Assembly (NCBI RefSeq): GCF_030384885.1
Contig: NZ_CP128613.1
Origin: Escherichia coli
Lineage (GTDB): Bacteria > Pseudomonadota > Gammaproteobacteria > Enterobacterales > Enterobacteriaceae
Length of the DNA stretch: 64,000 bases
Strand: one strand, 5' to 3'
Below, piece by piece: positions 12,627 through 44,524 of this stretch. The translations under genes and the position numbers were made by a program. The first letter of the stretch is position 1; every line of letters begins with the position of its first letter. Below the pieces are notes generated by a model. The model saw only the letters and a program-made list of their open reading frames with translations. It had not been told where the DNA came from and made no database searches.

Positions 12627-13979
12627 ATGAGTTCTTTAAGTCAGGCTGCAAGCAGTGTGGAAAAACGCACGAATGCTCGTTACTGGATAGTGGTGATGTT
12701 GTTTATCGTCACATCCTTCAACTACGGCGACCGCGCTACGCTCTCTATCGCCGGTTCGGAAATGGCCAAAGATATCGGCCTTGATCCAGTGGGAATGGGT
12801 TATGTGTTCTCAGCTTTCTCATGGGCTTATGTTATCGGGCAGATCCCTGGTGGCTGGTTGCTGGACCGTTTTGGTTCAAAACGCGTCTACTTCTGGTCGA
12901 TCTTTATCTGGTCGATGTTTACCTTGCTGCAAGGCTTCGTCGATATTTTTAGTGGATTCGGCATTATCGTTGCCCTGTTTACGCTGCGCTTCCTAGTCGG
13001 GCTTGCTGAAGCGCCATCTTTCCCCGGTAACAGTCGCATTGTAGCGGCCTGGTTTCCGGCGCAGGAAAGGGGAACGGCGGTGTCTATTTTTAACTCCGCC
13101 CAATACTTCGCAACGGTGATCTTCGCGCCGATTATGGGCTGGCTGACTCATGAAGTGGGTTGGTCACATGTCTTCTTCTTCATGGGCGGTCTGGGCATTG
13201 TCATCAGCTTTATCTGGTTGAAAGTCATCCATGAGCCAAATCAACATCCGGGCGTAAATCAGAAAGAGCTGGAGTACATCGCCGCGGGTGGTGCGCTGAT
13301 CAATATGGATCAGCAAAACACCAAAGTTAAAGTACCGTTCAGCGTGAAGTGGGGGCAGATCAAACAGCTGCTCGGGTCACGGATGATGATCGGCGTTTAT
13401 ATCGGTCAGTACTGTATCAACGCCCTGACTTACTTCTTTATTACCTGGTTCCCGGTTTATCTGGTGCAGGCACGCGGGATGTCGATTCTGAAAGCGGGCT
13501 TTGTGGCTTCCGTTCCGGCGGTTTGCGGTTTTATCGGCGGTGTGCTGGGTGGGATTATTTCTGACTGGCTGATGCGCCGCACGGGATCGCTGAACATTGC
13601 GCGTAAAACACCGATCGTAATGGGCATGTTGCTGTCGATGGTGATGGTGTTCTGCAACTACGTCAACGTTGAGTGGATGATCATCGGCTTTATGGCGCTG
13701 GCCTTCTTCGGTAAGGGCATCGGGGCGCTGGGTTGGGCAGTAATGGCAGATACCGCCCCAAAAGAGATCAGCGGTCTTTCCGGTGGCCTGTTCAACATGT
13801 TCGGTAACATTTCTGGCATCGTCACGCCAATCGCAATTGGTTATATCGTTGGCACGACTGGCTCGTTTAATGGGGCGCTGATTTATGTTGGTGTTCATGC
13901 CTTAATCGCGGTACTGAGCTACCTGGTGCTGGTGGGCGATATCAAGCGTATCGAGTTGAAACCTGTTGCGGGGCAATAA
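12627..13979 (+). CDS. gudP: Glucarate/galactarate MFS transporter
   Basis: 450-aa polytopic [29 protein letters not shown]...; first gene of gudPXD. Confidence 0.88.
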
Positions 13980-32275: not shown

Positions 32276-33219
32276 GAGTTCCCCGCGCCAGCGGGGATAA
32301 ACCGCAAAAACATGCCTCTAATCGCCTCATATCGCCGAGTTCCCCGCGCCAGCGGGGATAAACCGTGAATTCGCGGTCGTCGGTAGTTATTGTCACAGAG
32401 TTCCCCGCGCCAGCGGGGATAAACCGTTTATATCCCCGATACGCACGACGCGGACCGGGAGTTCCCCGCGCCAGCGGGGATAAACCGCCCCGCCCTCCTG
32501 CACCACGATCGCGCCCTCAGAGTTCCCCGCGCCAGCGGGGATAAACCGCCTTACGCCTGCAACCTCGTGCCACAGTTCATGAGTTCCCCGCGCCAGCGGG
32601 GATAAACCGGTTTTCAGTCCAGCGGCAGCTACGAGGAATCGGAGTTCCCCGCGCCAGCGGGGATAAACCGGATGGTTGAGGGTTATATGATGCCAGTTTA
32701 CGGAGTTCCCCGCGCCAGCGGGGATAAACCGGCAAAAACCGGGCAATCGCAAAAAGGCGTAATGAGTTCCCCGCGCCAGCGGGGATAAACCGACGCTGAT
32801 TATTCCGTACCAGTATTGTGAGGCGAGTTCCCCGCGCCAGCGGGGATAAACCGGATGACTCTGTGGCCTGGGTGGTTACCTGTCTGAGTTCCCCGCGCCA
32901 GCGGGGATAAACCGCCCTGCCCGTTTTGCGGGAGTTCCAATGTTGAGAGTTCCCCGCGCCAGCGGGGATAAACCGCATTATTTTTAGACGGTTGCGGGAT
33001 TGGATTAGAGTTCCCCGCGCCAGCGGGGATAAACCGCGGCCTGGTCGATATCTCGCTGCTAGCGTCAAGAGTTCCCCGCGCCAGCGGGGATAAACCGTAA
33101 GATGATCTCACGGAATTGAACGAACTACGGAGTTCCCCGCGCCAGCGGGGATAAACCGGACACAGAGCGCTGCTATAGCGCCTATGCCAAGAGTTCCCCG
33201 CACCAGCGGGAATAAACCA
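32276..33219 (+). CRISPR. Type I-E CRISPR array: 16 repeats, 15 spacers of 32 nt
   Basis: 29-bp repeat GAGTTCCCCGCGCCAGCGGGGATAAACCG at a strict 61-bp period, starting 32276, 32337, 32398 ... 33191; the last repeat is degenerate (gagttccccgcaccagcgggaataaacca); AT-rich leader upstream at about 31940-32275. Confidence 0.97.
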
Positions 33220-33808: not shown

Positions 33809-35287
33809 TTACGCATTCGACCAGCTCTGGATCGAATCTGCATTCCCCAACTCACCATGCATCACTTCATACGATTTTTTCAGGATCACATCAGTGTGTT
33901 TGGTTAGGTCTTTGAAAATGCCTTTATTCATCGCGTCGTAGCGTTTGGCATTGCTCTCAATCGGCATAAAGATATCTTTCACGCGAACCATTTTGTCGAC
34001 AGCCGTTGCGTAATCCGGGTATAGCCCCAGACCTACCGCCGTATTAATCGCTGCCCCCAGGCTTGCACAACCGTTAATGGCGTTACGTCGTGCCGGAAGG
34101 TTGAACACGTCGGCAAAAATTTGCATAAACAGATCGCTGTTCGAACCGCCGCCAGTAATGATCACATGTTTCGCAAAGTGATTCATTTCATGACACATAT
34201 TGTCGTAATTGTTCTTCAGCGTCAGCGCCACGCTTTCCAGTATCGAACGATATATCCATGCGTAATCCATGCTGGAATCAAAGCCGATCATAATCCCGCG
34301 TTTGTACGGTTCCCACGGATTGGTCAGCCAGTCCAGCACCGTCATCAGACCATTACAGCCAGGCGGCACACAAGAAGCTTTTTTGTTGAGCAAATCTTCC
34401 GGTGAAAGATCCTGTGCCCTGGCATCCTGAATTAACGACTCGCCTAACATGTCGCGAAGCCAGCTCACCGTCCACATGCCTTTGCGAATACCGTAACCTT
34501 CATACAGCAAGGTTTGCGGAATAGAAGACATAATCGGCCAGTACGCTACCGGATCTTTCGGCAGTACTTTGCCGTTCATCATCAACGCGATGTAAGTGCC
34601 AAGAGAAATTACCGCCGTTTCATCATCCAGTAACCCGGCTCCCAGTGCTTCTACCGGTTTATCACTGGTGGTACAAACAACTGGCAGCCCAGCCGGGAAA
34701 TGTGTCGCCAGCGCGGCTTGTGGTGTGATATGCCCAAGAACAGTGCCCGGCATTTGCACATCAAAAAGCATCTGTCGGGGAATATTAAACTTCTCCATTA
34801 CCGCGGTATCTTCGCTCCATGCCCAGGTCTTATAATCCACCGGCCACTGACCAAAATAGTTGGCGATATTGTCTTTAAACTCGCCGGTTAAACGGTGTGT
34901 CAGATAACCTGAAAAAGAGGTGGCATATGCCACATCAGGATTGGTGTGCTCGTAGGGACGTGTTACGCGTGCATCCTGCCAGCTAATCAACGGCGCAGCT
35001 GGCGTGCCATCGGCTTTCAATAACGCACGGCAGCAACGGATAGATCCCAGACCAATGCCGACAATATCTTCTTTATTCCCGGCAAACTGGCTCATCAAAT
35101 CGTGACCAGCAAAACATAATGATGCCCATAAATCATCGTCAGGATGTTCTGCGGTATCGGCATCTGGAGTGTGCATCGGTTGTAATAAGCCTTTGCCTTC
35201 GCAAACCACGTTACCTTCCAGATCGTACATCACCACTTTTGTGCTCTGACTTCCGCCATCAATCCCTATGATGTATTTTTTCGACAT
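33809..35287 (-). CDS. ygcE: FGGY-family carbohydrate kinase
   Basis: 492-aa ORF MSKKYIIGIDGGSQSTKVVMYDLEG... with FGGY N- and C-terminal signatures. Confidence 0.82.
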   Translation of the reverse strand: MSKKYIIGIDGGSQSTKVVMYDLEGNVVCEGKGLLQPMHTPDADTAEHPDDDLWASLCFAGHDLMSQFAGNKEDIVGIGLGSIRCCRALLKADGTPAAPLISWQDARVTRPYEHTNPDVAYATSFSGYLTHRLTGEFKDNIANYFGQWPVDYKTWAWSEDTAVMEKFNIPRQMLFDVQMPGTVLGHITPQAALATHFPAGLPVVCTTSDKPVEALGAGLLDDETAVISLGTYIALMMNGKVLPKDPVAYWPIMSSIPQTLLYEGYGIRKGMWTVSWLRDMLGESLIQDARAQDLSPEDLLNKKASCVPPGCNGLMTVLDWLTNPWEPYKRGIMIGFDSSMDYAWIYRSILESVALTLKNNYDNMCHEMNHFAKHVIITGGGSNSDLFMQIFADVFNLPARRNAINGCASLGAAINTAVGLGLYPDYATAVDKMVRVKDIFMPIESNAKRYDAMNKGIFKDLTKHTDVILKKSYEVMHGELGNADSIQSWSNA

Positions 35288-35313: not shown

Positions 35314-36591
35314 TTACTTGCTGCTAGCCATTGCGGGGGTGCTATCAGCAGTACGAATTTTTTGGAACAGCAAAAAGGTAAAGACGATCACCATGCCAAG
35401 CGCCGCCATGCCCATCAGCCACATATTGCGGTAGGCTTCTGCAGCGGGCAGGGTGTCTTGCCAGTAGCCGATAATTGGGTAAACGAAGACATCCGGCAGA
35501 AATCCAATCACCGAACAAATACCTACCGTGGTGCCCATAATGTAAGACGGTGTTCTCGCTTCGCCAGGGCAGGCCCAGTACAGCCCGCGTGAGGCGTAAC
35601 AGGTGAATCCCAGAAGTAAAATCAGACCAATCCCCATCGCGACCGATTGCGGGTTAGAGTTCGTGATGAGCAGGGCAGTTAACGCCAGCAGGCCGAGTAC
35701 GGAAAGTATTTGAATCACGCGGGTAGGGGATTTCACTTTGCTGTAGGTGGTGATAATGCCACCAAGTGGGCCGCACAGTGCGCGGAAGATTTTGTTGATC
35801 ACAATCCCCATGTAGCTCGCCGCCACCAGCGACATGCCGTACATTTCGGTCAGATAGTTGGTGGAGTAACTCAGAATGGCGTAGATGGTGAAGACGCCAA
35901 AAATCACCATGCTGCAGTACCATGTGGTGCTGATGCGCAAAACGGCCAGGATGTCGCTAAGCTGGAATGACTGTTTTTCTTCGTTATTGGCATTGCGCAG
36001 GTTGTTGTTATCGCTAACAAAAAACCAGCACAGAATCCCCAATAAAATGTAGACCACACTATAGATGATAATGACCGTTTTCAGGCTGGCGCTGTCATCC
36101 GGTGCAAAGCGAGAAAAGACCCACATGGTAAACACCGCCAGCGACATTACACCGACGCCGCGCAGCCCTTCCATCCAGCCCATAATTTTCCCCTGCTCGC
36201 TATGATCGCCAAGCAACGATGCGGCTTTAATCGACACCGACCACAGCATTAAAATCGTCGTTATCGCAAAGGCGACCTGAATACAGAGCATTACCCACAG
36301 CGGTGGATACGTTGCCATTAACAGACCCAGCAATCCGGTAATGATCATCGCGGAAGTAATCATTTTGCGATGCGAAAATTTATCGGCAATAACGCCGCTG
36401 GGGGCATAAAGAATAATAGCCGCAATACCAAAGGTACTCATTATTAAACCTATCTCGGTATTGCTGAATCCCATAAATTTAGCCATGGGAATTTGATAAA
36501 TATAACGTAAATAAGCCAGATCAAAACTAACGCCGCCACTAAAACTAATTATCGCGAGGGTTATCCAACGGCGATATGAGTTGTGTTGCAT
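35314..36591 (-). CDS. yqcE: MFS transporter
   Basis: 425-aa polytopic ORF; co-directional and 26 nt upstream of ygcE. Confidence 0.75.
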   Translation of the reverse strand: MQHNSYRRWITLAIISFSGGVSFDLAYLRYIYQIPMAKFMGFSNTEIGLIMSTFGIAAIILYAPSGVIADKFSHRKMITSAMIITGLLGLLMATYPPLWVMLCIQVAFAITTILMLWSVSIKAASLLGDHSEQGKIMGWMEGLRGVGVMSLAVFTMWVFSRFAPDDSASLKTVIIIYSVVYILLGILCWFFVSDNNNLRNANNEEKQSFQLSDILAVLRISTTWYCSMVIFGVFTIYAILSYSTNYLTEMYGMSLVAASYMGIVINKIFRALCGPLGGIITTYSKVKSPTRVIQILSVLGLLALTALLITNSNPQSVAMGIGLILLLGFTCYASRGLYWACPGEARTPSYIMGTTVGICSVIGFLPDVFVYPIIGYWQDTLPAAEAYRNMWLMGMAALGMVIVFTFLLFQKIRTADSTPAMASSK

Positions 36592-36615: not shown

Positions 36616-36663
36616 AAAAAAAAGAGAAAAGTAAGCCGCCCTTTCAGGTGGATTACTTTTCTC
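36616..36663 (-). terminator. Intrinsic-terminator-like hairpin in the yqcE 5' leader (attenuator candidate)
   Basis: Minus strand reads GAGAAAAGTAA-18 nt loop-TTACTTTTCTC followed by TTTTTTTT; perfect 11-bp stem; ends about 25 nt before the yqcE start codon. Confidence 0.6.
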
Positions 36664-36769
36664 AGGTCTCTAGTAATTGCAATAAGAAATAACATGGAAA
36701 GCAGGGGTGTTGTGTGAGAGTAGTCACGCTTCTGCTTTTTAAAATTATTTGACAATTCGAATATCACAC

Positions 36770-36785
36770 TGTGATTACGATCACA
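36770..36785. promoter_or_regulatory. CRP-binding site (perfect TGTGA-N6-TCACA core)
   Basis: TGTGATTACGATCACA read directly from the sequence; sits in the divergent yqcE / ygcW control region. Confidence 0.75.
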
Positions 36786-36836
36786 TTAGCGCTTATGCCC
36801 TTATGCTAAAAATTATCTCCAGTTACCAGAGATAAT

Positions 36837-36885
36837 GAGAAAGGTAACTTCCCTCTCGCGGGGGAAGTTACCTTTCTTTTTTTTT
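36837..36885 (+). terminator. Intrinsic-terminator-like hairpin in the ygcW 5' leader (attenuator candidate)
   Basis: GAGAAAGGTAACTTCCC-loop-GGGAAGTTACCTTTC followed by T9; ends about 25 nt before the ygcW ATG. Confidence 0.65.
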
Positions 36886-36909
36886 GCCTTACGGAAATTG
36901 GAGCTAACT

Positions 36910-37695
36910 ATGTCAATCGAATCTCTCAATGCGTTCTCAATGGATTTTTTCTCCCTGAAAGGTAAAACCGCAATTGTTACTGGTGGGAATAGCGGTTTAG
37001 GCCAGGCATTTGCCATGGCACTGGCAAAAGCAGGCGCAAATATCTTTATTCCTAGTTTCGTTAAAGATAATGGCGAAACAAAGGAAATGATTGAAAAACA
37101 GGGGGTTGAGGTGGGCTTCATGCAGGTGGATATCACCGCAGAAGGCGCGCCGCAGAAGATAATTGCCGCCTGTTGTGAACGTTTCGGCACCGTCGATATT
37201 CTGGTTAACAATGCCGGTATATGTAAGCTGAATAAGGTGCTGGATTTCGGTCGTGCCGACTGGGACCCGATGATTGACGTGAACCTGACCGCCGCATTCG
37301 AGTTAAGCTACGAAGCGGCAAAAATTATGATCCCGCAGAAAAGCGGTAAAATCATTAATATCTGTTCACTGTTTTCTTACTTAGGTGGTCAATGGTCTCC
37401 TGCTTATTCTGCCACTAAACACGCCCTTGCCGGATTTACCAAAGCCTATTGCGATGAATTAGGTCAATATAATATTCAGGTAAATGGTATTGCCCCAGGA
37501 TATTACGCTACCGATATCACCCTGGCGACACGCAGTAATCCAGAAACCAATCAGCGCGTTCTTGATCATATTCCAGCAAACCGTTGGGGCGATACTCAGG
37601 ATTTAATGGGCGCAGCCATATTTCTCGCAAGTCCGGCATCGAATTATGTCAACGGGCATTTATTAGTGGTTGATGGCGGTTATTTAGTGCGCTAA
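36910..37695 (+). CDS. ygcW: Short-chain dehydrogenase/reductase
   Basis: ORF track starts 36835; ATG at 36910 gives MSIESLNAFSMDFFSLKGKTAIVTGGNSGLGQAFA (TGxxxGxG Rossmann motif). Confidence 0.82.
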   Translation: MSIESLNAFSMDFFSLKGKTAIVTGGNSGLGQAFAMALAKAGANIFIPSFVKDNGETKEMIEKQGVEVGFMQVDITAEGAPQKIIAACCERFGTVDILVNNAGICKLNKVLDFGRADWDPMIDVNLTAAFELSYEAAKIMIPQKSGKIINICSLFSYLGGQWSPAYSATKHALAGFTKAYCDELGQYNIQVNGIAPGYYATDITLATRSNPETNQRVLDHIPANRWGDTQDLMGAAIFLASPASNYVNGHLLVVDGGYLVR

Positions 37696-42269: not shown

Positions 42270-42380
42270 TGCCGGATGATCCTGTCTACGGTTCTGGGCT
42301 GGGGACTGTAGGCCTGATAAGACGCGTCAAGCGTCGTATCAGGCGCTGAATGCCGGATTAGGCATGTGGCCTACAAATCA
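42270..42380. repeat. BIME / REP cluster
   Basis: ctgtaggcctgataagacgcgtcaagcgtcgtatcaggcgctgaatgccggattaggcatgtggcctacaa; several palindromic units between convergent ygcQ and ygcP. Confidence 0.75.
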
Positions 42381-42409: not shown

Positions 42410-42985
42410 TCAAAGCAATTTTTTCGCTAACGTCCAGACCCCGGTATTCGTGGTAGAAAGCGCCACTACACCGGCGTTAATCGCATTACGCGCATCTTCT
42501 TCATCGCACACCAGCCCGCCAGCAATCAGCGGCTGGTGGATTTTCTCCGTTACCCAGCCCAGCACTTTAGGCATACAGCCTGGCAGAATTTCAATACAAT
42601 CAGGATTCGATTGCGCAACCTGCTTATCAATGTTGTGAAAAGAAATCGAGTCGACAATAAACAAGCGATGAATACAGAAAAAGCCTTCCGCTCTCGCCGC
42701 TTTTAGCATTGACGCTTTGGTACTGATAATGCCGTCCGCCTCGGTCACCAGTTTCAGAAACTGAATTACTACTTCTTTATTTGACGCGCCTTCCAGCAAA
42801 TCGACATGAATAAAAGCATATTTTCCGGCGTTCTTAATCTTTTTGACGATATGACTGATGGTGCAAATATTGCCGTATAACACGGAAATAAACTGGCATT
42901 CAGAATCGATTGCCAACTGCAGGCTGGCATTATCTTTAACGGCAGCAATCACCGGATTCTGGCGGAGCAGGTGTAAGAGGGGCAT
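42410..42985 (-). CDS. ygcP: GlpP-family (glycerol-3-phosphate-responsive) antiterminator-like protein
   Basis: 191-aa ORF MPLLHLLRQNPVIAAVKDNASLQLAIDSECQFISVLYGNI... matches the GlpP / G3P_antiterm family. Confidence 0.72.
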   Translation of the reverse strand: MPLLHLLRQNPVIAAVKDNASLQLAIDSECQFISVLYGNICTISHIVKKIKNAGKYAFIHVDLLEGASNKEVVIQFLKLVTEADGIISTKASMLKAARAEGFFCIHRLFIVDSISFHNIDKQVAQSNPDCIEILPGCMPKVLGWVTEKIHQPLIAGGLVCDEEDARNAINAGVVALSTTNTGVWTLAKKLL

Positions 42986-43001: not shown

Positions 43002-43262
43002 TTATCCAAAGCGGTAGGTGATGCCGAATCCGGAAGGCGGATAGCGCCACTGTTGTAGGTTTTTTTCATCACACAGTAAACGGCAGGTGCCACACTCCAG
43101 GCAGCCGCGATAATCAACGCGTAAGTCGCCTTCCGGCGTGAGCGAAAAAAGACCAGCCGGACAAGCGTTAATCAACCGTTCTGCCGTCTGGCGCTCAACG
43201 GAGTCTGCCGGAACAATATGTGGCGCATCAGCAGCGCGCCAGAGATTACGGGCTACAGACAT
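43002..43262 (-). CDS. ygcO: Ferredoxin-like protein (FixX-like)
   Basis: ORF track gives a 98-aa frame; probable start is the internal Met (MSVARNLWR...); Cys motif CLECGTCRLLC. Confidence 0.7.
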   Translation of the reverse strand: MSVARNLWRAADAPHIVPADSVERQTAERLINACPAGLFSLTPEGDLRVDYRGCLECGTCRLLCDEKNLQQWRYPPSGFGITYRFG

Positions 43263-44524
43263 CGAATACTCCTGACAACATCGCCCGCCAGATGCCACAG
43301 GCCATGACGACGTAAATGACGCCAGAGCAACTGGCGCAGCGGCGGAACAGGTTTATCACCTTGATCCCATAAATCACGGGAAATATCCTGCATTAACGCA
43401 GGCCACTTACGGTACCAGCCCGGGCGTTGCAAAAGCGCCGGAACATGCTGATAACGCTGTAGAACATCCCACAACATGCTGTGCTCTACATTGTGATGAT
43501 AAAGCGGAAACAGATTTTGCGGCTCGCGGTGCTGACAGGCGCTTATCAGCGTGTGTGCCGCCGCCTGCGCGCCAGTCAGCGCCATATCCATGCCGCGCAC
43601 GGAAATTCCGGTATTGACGCAACTGCGCAACGTATCGCCCACCAGCAGCCAGCCGTTACCGCCATATTGCACCGGCATACTGTGCAGCCCACCTTCCGGC
43701 ACCAGATGCGCGCCATACTCCAGTGATTCCGTGTTTTTGATAAGCGGGCGCACTGCCGGATGCGTTTTAAAGCGAGCCAGCAGCTCGCTTGCCGGAACAC
43801 GACTTTGCGTAAGTGAAGAGAGCGGGCAAACAATCCCTAACGAGAGCGTTTGTTGATTAGTATAAAGAAATGCGCCGCCGGGTAAGTCATCACAGATTTC
43901 GCCGCTGAATAACAACGCTGCGCCTTCGTTATTCTCCAGATGAAAACGTTCTTCAATAGCGGATGTTTCCAGTGACAGAACTTCTTTAATCCCCAACGCC
44001 ATCACTTCGCCAGCAGGACGAGTCACTAACCCGTGACGCTCAGACAGGACGCTGTTGGCACCTTCTGCCAGCACCACATAACGGGCGCGGAGAATATCGT
44101 CACCACAAATAACGCCGCAAACTCTGCCTTTTTCTTCATACAGTGCATCCACCGTCGTACCGGGGATGCATTCGACACCTTCTTTTTCGGCTTCGGCAAC
44201 CAGCCACGGATCGAATCGCGCACGTAATACACTCCAGGATTCACCGTCGGGCTGTAAGCTGGAAAACGTCGTTGCGCCATCGGGCGTTAACAGAGAAAGG
44301 CTTTCGTGAGTGATGCGTCGTTCAAGGGGCGCGGTCAGGTGAAATTGAGGGAGGAGTTCCGCAAGTGCATGGGTATATAACCGCCCGCCGGAAAGATTTT
44401 TGCTGCCGGGAATTTCAGCGCGTTCCAGTAACAAAACGGATAAACCCGCTCGCGCGCAGCGTAACGCGCAAGCAGTGCCTGCAATACCGGCACCAATAAT
44501 AATAATGTCGCAGTCGTCTTCCAT
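43253..44524 (-). CDS. ygcN: FAD-dependent oxidoreductase (FixC-like, ETF-quinone oxidoreductase type)
   Basis: ORF track gives 433 aa; probable start MEDDCDIIIIGAGIAGTACA (dinucleotide-binding GxGxxG). Confidence 0.78.
   Translation of the reverse strand: MEDDCDIIIIGAGIAGTACALRCARAGLSVLLLERAEIPGSKNLSGGRLYTHALAELLPQFHLTAPLERRITHESLSLLTPDGATTFSSLQPDGESWSVLRARFDPWLVAEAEKEGVECIPGTTVDALYEEKGRVCGVICGDDILRARYVVLAEGANSVLSERHGLVTRPAGEVMALGIKEVLSLETSAIEERFHLENNEGAALLFSGEICDDLPGGAFLYTNQQTLSLGIVCPLSSLTQSRVPASELLARFKTHPAVRPLIKNTESLEYGAHLVPEGGLHSMPVQYGGNGWLLVGDTLRSCVNTGISVRGMDMALTGAQAAAHTLISACQHREPQNLFPLYHHNVEHSMLWDVLQRYQHVPALLQRPGWYRKWPALMQDISRDLWDQGDKPVPPLRQLLWRHLRRHGLWHLAGDVVRSIRCL

Follow-up and report, generated by a model that had tools for sequence, protein, structure and literature searches.

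The ygc island and its two leader terminators

The window analysed here is a stretch of 64,000 nucleotides (nt) of Escherichia coli DNA (assembly GCF_030384885.1, contig NZ_CP128613.1), and the subject of this work is an RNA element found in the leaders of the two divergent operons of its ygc island. Around a spacer of 318 nt, the yqcE-ygcE operon is read from the minus strand and the ygcW-ygcU-ygcS-ygcR-ygcQ operon from the plus strand, the order and strands already given in a preliminary description of this DNA, and ygcN-ygcO-ygcP follows on the minus strand downstream of the ygcW operon. The cluster encodes an FGGY kinase, a GlcD-like FAD oxidase, a short-chain dehydrogenase/reductase (SDR), an electron transfer flavoprotein (ETF) and transporters of the major facilitator superfamily (MFS). 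The region is 100% identical to that of E. coli strain 2013C-4282 and ~97% identical to those of K-12 derivatives. The genes most relevant to what follows are:

33809-35287, minus strand: ygcE, FGGY kinase
35314-36591, minus strand: yqcE, MFS transporter, first gene of yqcE-ygcE, with its ATG at 36591
36910-37695, plus strand: ygcW, KduD-like SDR, first gene of ygcW-ygcU-ygcS-ygcR-ygcQ
42410-42985, minus strand: ygcP, GlpP-family protein (Pfam PF04309) and, from this match and synteny, the proposed trans-acting antiterminator

Each of the two divergent operons is preceded, in its own sense orientation, by a strong hairpin followed by a U-tract:

36616-36663, minus strand: intrinsic terminator of the yqcE leader, stem GAGAAAAGUAA...UUACUUUUCUC from 36663 to 36624 and U8 from 36623 to 36616
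36837-36885, plus strand: intrinsic terminator of the ygcW leader, 19-bp stem at 36837-36878 and U9 at 36877-36885

Both U-tracts end 24 nt upstream of their respective start codons (yqcE ATG at 36591, ygcW ATG at 36910). RNA folding, which the preliminary description had put forward as a check, gave structures far more stable than those of shuffled controls for the ygcW leader (-42.4 kcal/mol, z = -7.0) and the yqcE leader (-23.3 kcal/mol, z = -3.5), and revealed alternative hairpins in both. The ygcW hairpin held the top rank in a terminator scan of 13 kb, and a search of the window for GAGAAARGTAA with at most one mismatch returned the two hairpins and a single unrelated one-mismatch site.

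That these hairpins are active in the cell is seen in the Term-seq tables of Adams et al. 2021 (PMC7815308) for E. coli K-12 MG1655 grown in lysogeny broth (LB) to an optical density (OD) of 0.4. The ygcW leader has a 3' end at K-12 position 2900311(-) with 40,640 reads, a Rho score of 0.50 and an intrinsic score of 15.8, and the yqcE leader has one at 2900556(+) with 1,557 reads and scores of 0.61 and 11.4, respectively; both fall outside Rho termination regions, and the tables annotate no regulatory element for either. As the sequence column of the table runs 10 nt beyond the 3' end, the dominant ends correspond to window positions 36872 (ygcW) and 36627 (yqcE). Both terminators thus work in vivo in E. 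coli K-12, which bears out the sense-oriented leader terminators read earlier from the stems and U-tracts. Since 3' ends are found at both hairpins, transcription begins upstream of them and ends there, and does not start downstream of the hairpins, the outcome that had been named as contrary to leader control.

A conserved element with two mutually exclusive helices

The terminator is only the distal part of a larger element of ~65 nt, which comprises, from 5' to 3', a first box with the sequence (A)GUUAC (box 1), one nt, GAGA box I, a stretch of 3-5 nt, GAGA box II, the loop, the 3' arm and a tract of U7-9. GAGA box I reads AGAG with an invariant GAG, and GAGA box II opens the 5' arm of the terminator (GAGAAAAGUAACUUCC); the GAG of both boxes is invariant in alignments of 36 and of 121 sequences drawn from several phyla. 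The parts of the element in the two leaders, as identified from alignments, covariation and folding, are the following:

36821-36827, plus strand: ygcW box 1, AGUUACC, 5' strand of the antiterminator (covariation with the arm, folding)
36828-36840, plus strand: ygcW GAGA boxes, AGAGA-UAAU-GAGA, loop of the antiterminator, the second box being the start of the terminator 5' arm
36843-36849, plus strand: ygcW GGUAACU, 3' strand of the antiterminator inside the terminator 5' arm (covariation, folding)
36672-36678, minus strand: yqcE box 1, AAUUACU, 5' strand of the antiterminator (covariation, folding)
36660-36671, minus strand: yqcE GAGA boxes, AGAGA-CCU-GAGA (alignments)
36652-36657, minus strand: yqcE AGUAAU, 3' strand of the antiterminator inside the terminator 5' arm (covariation, folding)

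In the nascent 5' part of the ygcW leader, box 1 and the terminator arm form an antiterminator hairpin of 7 bp with -6.7 kcal/mol, against -34 kcal/mol for the terminator, whereas the corresponding yqcE hairpin, AUUACU:AGUAAU, has 6 bp and -1.4 kcal/mol against -22 kcal/mol. With antiterminator hairpins so weak and terminators so strong, read-through needs something that stabilises the weak hairpin.

Compensatory changes support this second helix in a direct way. In the yqcE leader a G-to-A change in box 1 is matched by a C-to-U change in the arm, so that GUUAC:GUAAC becomes AUUAC:GUAAU, a replacement also found in several Clostridia, Sporomusa and Spirochaetes; the same helix appears as GUUGC:GCGAC in Listeria, in Bacillus and, independently, in one enterobacterial metagenome-assembled genome (MAG), and as GGUUAC:GUAACC in Saccharopolyspora. 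Box 1 and the arm are complementary in 124 of 125 unique elements. When the elements were aligned with MAFFT without any fitting to this helix, ~20 rows fell out of register; even so, 83.3% of the cells of the antiterminator helix are paired (the key pair being GC in 63 and AU in 34) and 40 cells carry double changes, compared with 18.7 +/- 2.9 after shuffling; none of 500 shuffles reached the observed values, and controls with the strands slid along the alignment gave 18-54%. For the terminator helix, 91.9% of the cells are paired, 12 of the 17 pairs are changed on both sides, and again no shuffle out of 500 reached it. Two mutually exclusive helices are therefore both supported by compensatory changes.

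The distribution of the element was followed with a covariance model, R1, built from 36 spread copies. Within the window the model finds exactly the two leaders (61.9 and 63.7 bits) and otherwise only the same hairpins on the opposite strand. In 1.55 Mb of ygcP loci it gives ~136 strong matches, all of them sense-oriented and just upstream of an open reading frame (ORF): ygcW in 61 cases, yqcE in 52, ygcU in 15 and other genes in 12. At least one element is present in 75 of 81 ygcP sources, and four of the six sources lacking it are contigs that end too early. Across 80 loci retrieved around YgcP relatives, ygcP is linked to ygcE, ygcU, ygcW and the ETF genes, the linkage extending through Escherichia, Citrobacter, Serratia, Pantoea, Vibrio, Clostridia, Listeria, Bacillus, Sporomusa, Spirochaetes, an Anaerolineaceae MAG and Saccharopolyspora, and the operons of these loci are preceded by sense-oriented hairpins with U-tracts of nearly identical sequence. 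The model also matches ygc-type clusters on a megaplasmid of Streptomyces clavuligerus (52.6 bits) and in Enterococcus raffinosus. Moreover, the element occurs in 5,063 of 5,426 complete E. coli genomes (~93%), with a median of two sites per genome and none on plasmids, and within the species both leaders are invariant whereas the spacer between them varies.

A search starting from the element and not from ygcP was made in metagenomes with an 18-base gapped pattern. Among the 80 matches fetched, 77 were chance word matches devoid of a terminator, so that the pattern is too short for a collection of that size; the other three were genuine elements, and all three adjoin a glpP-like gene. Rfam 15 gave no match at the hairpins at E <= 1 in the window, nor did any repeat family, and in the ygc loci of Geosporobacter and Streptomyces and the canonical glp leaders of Staphylococcus aureus and Cytobacillus it returned one chance match to a microRNA model, well below the gathering score. 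No convincing element was found at GlpP homologues located near ABC transporters or pflB in B. thuringiensis, C. butyricum, Planococcus, Listeria monocytogenes and Bacillus sp. F19.

These results bear on much of what had been read from the window alone. The preliminary description proposed a recognition element shared by the two leaders, and nearly the same sequence is indeed kept across phyla beside ygcP, as shown by extending the covariance search that it had advised for Enterobacteriaceae to sources from several phyla. The conservation concerns the 5' arm, the likeness of the 3' arms being a mere complement of it. The alternative pairing of AGUUACC with GGUAACU in the ygcW leader likewise proved complementary and backed by compensatory changes. 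Having noticed the hairpins and, for ygcW, this AGUUACC, the description nevertheless fell short of the whole element with its box 1, two GAGA boxes, terminator and U-tract.

Two loci depart from the common arrangement. In Limnobaculum eriocheiris (positions 13875-13955 of locus L040) the ygcW-yqcE spacer measures only ~130 nt and contains one palindromic hairpin, bordered by A9 and T9; promoter, CRP site, box 1 and first GAGA box are all missing. The control region seems to have been lost when the two inverted elements recombined, and a sister species (L042) has two hairpins identical in sequence. In E. coli strain 510016 (positions 2440-2520 of locus L005), the end of an IS1 lies 17 nt before the ygcW ATG, and the locus lacks the terminator, the two promoters, yqcE-ygcE and the CRISPR array. 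With an IS1 end in place of promoters and terminator, the ygcW operon of that strain escapes CRP and terminator control.

Predicted promoters, YgcP and the canonical glp leaders

Upstream of each element lies a candidate promoter with its own CRP site. The features, with transcription start sites (TSSs) as predicted, are:

36770-36785, no strand assigned: CRP site A, TGTGATTACGATCACA, centre 36777.5, at about -41.5 (predicted) of the ygcW promoter
36804-36812, plus strand: extended -10 of ygcW, TG-C-TAAAAA, predicted TSS about 36819
36713-36728, minus strand: putative CRP site B, CGTGACTACTCTCACA on that strand, centre 36720.5, at about -41.5 (predicted) of the yqcE promoter
36686-36694, minus strand (read from 36694 to 36686): extended -10 of yqcE, TG-T-TATTTC, predicted TSS about 36679

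Site A lies 51.5 nt from the GAG box of ygcW, and this distance is 50.5-52.5 nt in nearly all Enterobacterales loci; site B lies 50.5 nt from the GAG box of yqcE, with a range of 49.5-54.5 nt across the order. These spacings hold although the two elements lie anywhere from 139 to 350 nt apart. On the ygcW side [AG]TGnTA... is kept at a fixed distance in Enterobacterales, and on the yqcE side CATG[TC]TATTT is conserved in Enterobacteriaceae. The TSS positions are deduced from class II geometry and -10 spacing: a CRP centre at -41.5 and a distance of 7 nt from the -10 hexamer both point to 36819 and 36679, that is, 1-2 nt before box 1. The supplementary data of a Cappable-seq study hold no rows near these leader coordinates. 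The end of a TATAAT box lies 6-8 nt ahead of box 1 in Firmicutes, which places box 1 in the RNA, and together with the predicted enterobacterial TSSs this suggests that the element is the extreme 5' end of the mRNA. The hexamers proposed in a study using systematic evolution of ligands by exponential enrichment (SELEX), TTGACA-16-TGTGAT for ygcW and TTCTCA-18-GATAAT for yqcE, were rejected as the main promoters since their distance to the element is not fixed; those given for yqcE (window 36804-36841, minus strand) fall inside the ygcW leader, and the conserved pairs of CRP site and extended -10 fit better. The same study flags H-NS binding in the yqcE-ygcW spacer.

The perfect CRP core at 36770-36785 had been noted before, as lying between the two hairpins and as part of an undescribed control. 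It is present; from the layout above, it would serve ygcW only, yqcE having site B of its own. Moreover, CRP binding at site A was already published, by chromatin immunoprecipitation in enterotoxigenic E. coli (PMC4287617) and by Footprint-seq with a dissociation constant of 1.7 nM (PMC12871828), and the site also appears in a published PhyloScan prediction, with yqcE-ygcE listed as Crp-activated. At site B, CRP binding is predicted from the sequence.

The protein thought to work the element, YgcP, belongs to the GlpP family, as had been supposed: it matches Pfam PF04309 (G3P_antiterm) from end to end (1-173/173, E = 2.2e-62), this being the sole Pfam family found, and its homologues carry precomputed PF04309 assignments. 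A PDB sequence search returned two structures, 3KTS, which is Listeria GlpP (E = 9e-29), and 1VKF (E = 4.5e-15), with no RNA complex among them. The glycine-rich phosphate-loop motif IAGGL is invariant in 17 diverse homologues and is present in 3KTS as well. YgcP orthologues occur throughout Enterobacterales; identity is ~60% to clostridial ygc-type proteins and ~27-33% to the GlpP homologues of S. aureus, B. thuringiensis, C. butyricum and L. monocytogenes. The YgcP proteins of E. coli and Citrobacter are 96-97% identical, compared with 62-75% for YgcN, YgcQ and YgcR, and towards clostridial homologues the ~60% of YgcP stands against about 27-36% for the ETF subunits. These figures suggest that YgcP is strongly constrained or that the cluster has a mosaic or horizontally acquired history; the high conservation fits co-evolution with a nearly invariant RNA.

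An established target of GlpP in Bacillus subtilis is glpD: its 5' untranslated region (5' UTR) is enough to place other promoters under the control of GlpP and glycerol, and deletion of glpP abolishes induction (PMC9604022). The glpD leader reads AGUUAAUAAGAAC-GGUC-C-UGAGA-UGAG-GAGA-GACC-ACAGC..., followed by the terminator, and the nascent RNA can form a GGUC:GACC hairpin around its GAGA boxes. The same plan was found in the glpF and glpD leaders of S. aureus and of Cytobacillus spongiae and in the glpF leader of B. licheniformis (sequence taken from PMC2965389), all from glpP-glpF-glpK-glpD operons, the GlpP dependence of these five leaders being assumed from that context. Common to the six is a variable stem of 4-7 bp that encloses GAGA-N3-5-GAGA and overlaps the terminator arm, the stems being GGUC:GACC, GGUU:GACC, UUUGAAU:GUUCGAA, UAGAA:UUCUA, UGUGA:UCACG and UGUG:CACA. 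Under fixed search rules, pairing against shuffled flanks gave P = 0.014-0.23 per canonical leader, which combine by Fisher's method to P = 0.002 over the five leaders tested; neither E. coli leader exceeded P = 0.002.

The analogy with GlpP drawn in the preliminary description is thus matched by the architecture of the glp leaders themselves. GlpP antitermination of B. subtilis (glpD, glpFK and glpTQ leaders) and the ygc system have in common a regulator of family PF04309 and an intrinsic terminator that follows the promoter immediately within the 5' UTR. In each, the terminator competes with a weak hairpin that presents GAGA-N3-5-GAGA in its loop and takes its 3' strand from the terminator 5' arm. 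Further shared traits are an AGUUA motif at the 5' end of the RNA and, in the proposed logic, a kinase product as inducer combined with catabolite control. They differ in that all six canonical leaders start with AAGUUAAUA and the ygc element with AGUUAC, that box 1 of the ygc element is this 5' AGUUAC itself, that the whole lower terminator stem is conserved in sequence and that the loop is ~3 nt longer. Catabolite control would be exerted by CRP (class II, as predicted) and not by CcpA as in B. subtilis, the ygc effector is probably not glycerol-3-phosphate (G3P), and the host is a Gram-negative bacterium, where the GlpP mechanism was not previously described. At the level of the models, the ygc element appears to be a sister of the GlpP target and not a member of the same sequence family. 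In this line, B. subtilis GlpP acts on glpF, glpK, glpD and glpT, whereas the genes downstream of ygc elements are ygcW, yqcE, ygcU, ygcE and transporters; as these are not glycerol or G3P genes, the set constitutes a sister regulon and not a glp regulon.

Other antitermination systems offer more distant likenesses. The BglG/SacY/LicT proteins, acting on the bgl operon of E. coli and on sac and lic of B. subtilis, also provide protein-dependent antitermination of catabolic operons, through a short hairpin, the ribonucleic antiterminator (RAT), which overlaps the 5' arm of the leader terminator and owes its stability to protein binding, and they operate in E. coli K-12 as well. YgcP differs in lacking CAT and PRD domains in the Pfam scan, so that control through phosphorylation by the phosphotransferase system is not expected; the ygc RNA has no similarity to RAT, and the presumed signal is a small phosphorylated ligand. 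HutP of B. subtilis is a ligand-activated protein that binds short purine-rich UAG repeats upstream of and within the terminator of the hut leader and so keeps it from forming, and the ygc element likewise has repeated short purine boxes, including UAGAG; HutP, however, has an unrelated fold and needs two clusters of three NAG repeats, compared with two GAGA boxes in a covarying hairpin.

A proposed GlpP-type switch and its alternatives

GlpP-type antitermination very likely controls this orphan sugar island. The established part consists of the terminators with their in vivo 3' ends, the two helices, the synteny and the published CRP binding at site A; on this basis we propose, with a probability of roughly 0.7, that both operons are governed by a GlpP-type terminator/antiterminator switch worked by YgcP. 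Each operon would have its own class II CRP-dependent promoter activated by cyclic AMP (cAMP) and CRP, and the ~65-nt switch would begin at most 1-2 nt into the transcript. Unless the switch is thrown, the strong terminator forms and the RNA stops ~25 nt before the start codon, leaving short leader RNAs, as the in vivo 3' ends show. In the alternative state, which the covariation demonstrates, box 1 (AGUUAC or AUUAC) pairs with GUAAC or GUAAU of the 5' arm and displays the two GAGA boxes in the loop; YgcP loaded with a phosphorylated effector would bind this GAGA-loop hairpin and keep the 5' arm from the 3' arm, allowing RNA polymerase to read through. What the FGGY kinase YgcE produces is the probable effector, by analogy with the G3P made by GlpK, which fits the IAGGL phosphate-loop motif and the cluster's resemblance to a glycerol pathway (transporter, FGGY kinase, FAD dehydrogenase with ETF). 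Expression would then require both cAMP-CRP, signalling that no better carbon source is available, and a pathway intermediate, signalling that the substrate is present. The substrate could not be assigned from the proteins, as an NCBIfam scan gave matches to the GlpK, GlcD, KduD and other models that were all below the curated cut-offs, and papers on expression mentioning the annotation proved to deal with canonical glycerol clusters and were dropped.

Several observations weigh against the proposed switch. RNA binding by YgcP, its ligand and conditional read-through are derived from synteny and analogy, and the class II geometry at -41.5 is a prediction. The dominant 3' ends (36872 and 36627) lie within the AU-rich base of the 3' arms, outside the U-tracts, and we assume that they represent terminated transcripts trimmed by exonuclease to the stable upper stem. 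Moreover, they are listed in the Term-seq tables for LB at OD 0.4 only, being absent from M63-glucose and from LB at OD 2.0; the former fits catabolite repression, while CRP should be active in the latter, so that this second absence is not explained by CRP. No clear element was found at the ABC-transporter-linked GlpP homologues of B. thuringiensis, C. butyricum and Planococcus, nor upstream of ygcP in Enterobacterales. Finally, the match of the covariance model to the canonical S. aureus leaders reaches only ~14 bits (E about 1), although at the right place and strand, so that the link to canonical GlpP targets is made through the architecture of six leaders, with modest statistics.

Different readings of the same leaders were also considered. 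A riboswitch, in which the GAGA-loop hairpin would bind a metabolite directly and YgcP would be an enzyme or an unrelated regulator travelling with the cluster, shares the signature of mutually exclusive covarying helices and invariant loop nucleotides, and no substrate is assigned to the cluster; it nevertheless appears quite unlikely, as the candidate aptamer is a 5-7 bp stem with a mostly purine loop of 14-18 nt and no further conserved pairing, no Rfam family matches it, a PF04309 gene accompanies the element in 75 of 81 loci and in all three element-first matches, and the B. subtilis glpD leader with the same GAGA-loop architecture needs GlpP (PMC9604022). The idea that a real switch is run by a factor other than YgcP, be it another RNA-binding protein, the translating ribosome or a small RNA, draws on the indirect assignment of YgcP, whose gene belongs in E. 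coli to a separate operon, ygcNOP, ~5.5 kb away. The leaders, however, contain no ORF upstream of the terminator, their 3' ends are not Rho-dependent and, among the genes mapped, ygcP is the only regulator-like one that stays with the element across phyla; its strong conservation from E. coli to Citrobacter (96-97% identity, with ygcN, ygcQ and ygcR at 62-75%) fits RNA co-evolution, and we give another factor a slim chance.

The hairpins might, in turn, not be conditional at all, acting as constitutive terminators or insulators, or as a source of trans-acting small RNAs, with no read-through conditioned by YgcP. The ygcW leader is certainly abundant, its 40,640 Term-seq reads being comparable to those of known 5'-UTR-derived RNAs in the same table, and the literature searched reports no expression of the downstream genes under any condition. 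Yet a terminator that always blocks would silence both operons, whose genes more than 5,000 E. coli genomes have kept intact; nor do ordinary terminators preserve across phyla their sequence or a covarying rival helix. A trans-acting leader RNA, for its part, could exist alongside the switch without taking its place. Constitutive action is thus doubtful, to much the same degree as direct metabolite sensing. An origin of the hairpins as copies of a repeated or mobile palindromic element of the REP or MITE (miniature inverted-repeat transposable element) type, devoid of regulatory role, would suit their being inverted near-copies and the pair apparently recombined into one in L. eriocheiris. It was rejected as very improbable on copy number and fixed position, with two copies in the window and two places per E. 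coli genome, always at this locus and never on plasmids, always sense-oriented a few nt upstream of ygc-type ORFs, and no Rfam repeat match at the hairpins.

With regard to previous work, the supplement of Naville and Gautheret 2010 (PMC2965389) lists a "ygcW attenuator" among E. coli attenuators "found in the literature" and includes the ygcW terminator in its prediction table. This is the same hairpin, listed with no mechanism, antiterminator, yqcE twin, motif, YgcP or link across phyla. In the open-access literature no paper was found that connects these leaders to YgcP, to the yqcE twin, to the box 1/GAGA motif or to its phyletic spread, nor any report of GlpP-type antitermination in enterobacteria; older GlpP papers may define the binding site more closely. 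What the preliminary description called undescribed is therefore apparently new as regards the proposed antitermination mechanism, and not as regards the ygcW attenuator listed in 2010 or CRP binding at site A.

The proposed YgcP-operated switch provides a testable regulatory mechanism for an uncharacterised catabolic island of E. coli K-12 that is carried by ~93% of complete E. coli genomes, and would bring GlpP-type antitermination, hitherto known from work on Firmicutes, into enterobacteria and into another pathway. The element itself is a compact uncatalogued RNA motif that could enter RNA family databases and serve to annotate PF04309 regulons in several phyla. A leader reporter of antitermination, confronted with carbon sources or phosphosugars, offers a route to the substrate of the cluster, and the pair of YgcP and leader could act as an orthogonal inducible switch, as GlpP/PglpD does in B. 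subtilis. A wider and more tentative proposal, to which we give slightly less than an even chance, is that the GAGA-loop hairpin is the RNA target of the whole PF04309 family including canonical GlpP, with YgcP a paralogue sensing the YgcE product and not G3P; if so, the hairpin would define an RNA family outside Rfam spanning at least five phyla, and E. coli K-12 would possess, besides Bgl, another protein-dependent antitermination system for catabolic genes, while the abundant terminated ygcW leader might also act as a small RNA.

A few further observations concern the surroundings of the two operons. Just past ygcE, at window positions 32276-33219, the identical RefSeq genome has an annotated CRISPR repeat array. 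The ygcQ-ygcP spacer (42311-42371, minus strand) gives a weak match to the Rfam model naRNA4 (31.1 bits, gathering score 59.5), probably a REP-type repeat. Lastly, the Term-seq tables hold a 3' end at K-12 2892741(+), 84 nt inside ygcN (window 43253-44524), in a significant Rho termination region with a Rho score of 3.7, from which the operon encoding YgcP may itself undergo premature termination in LB.

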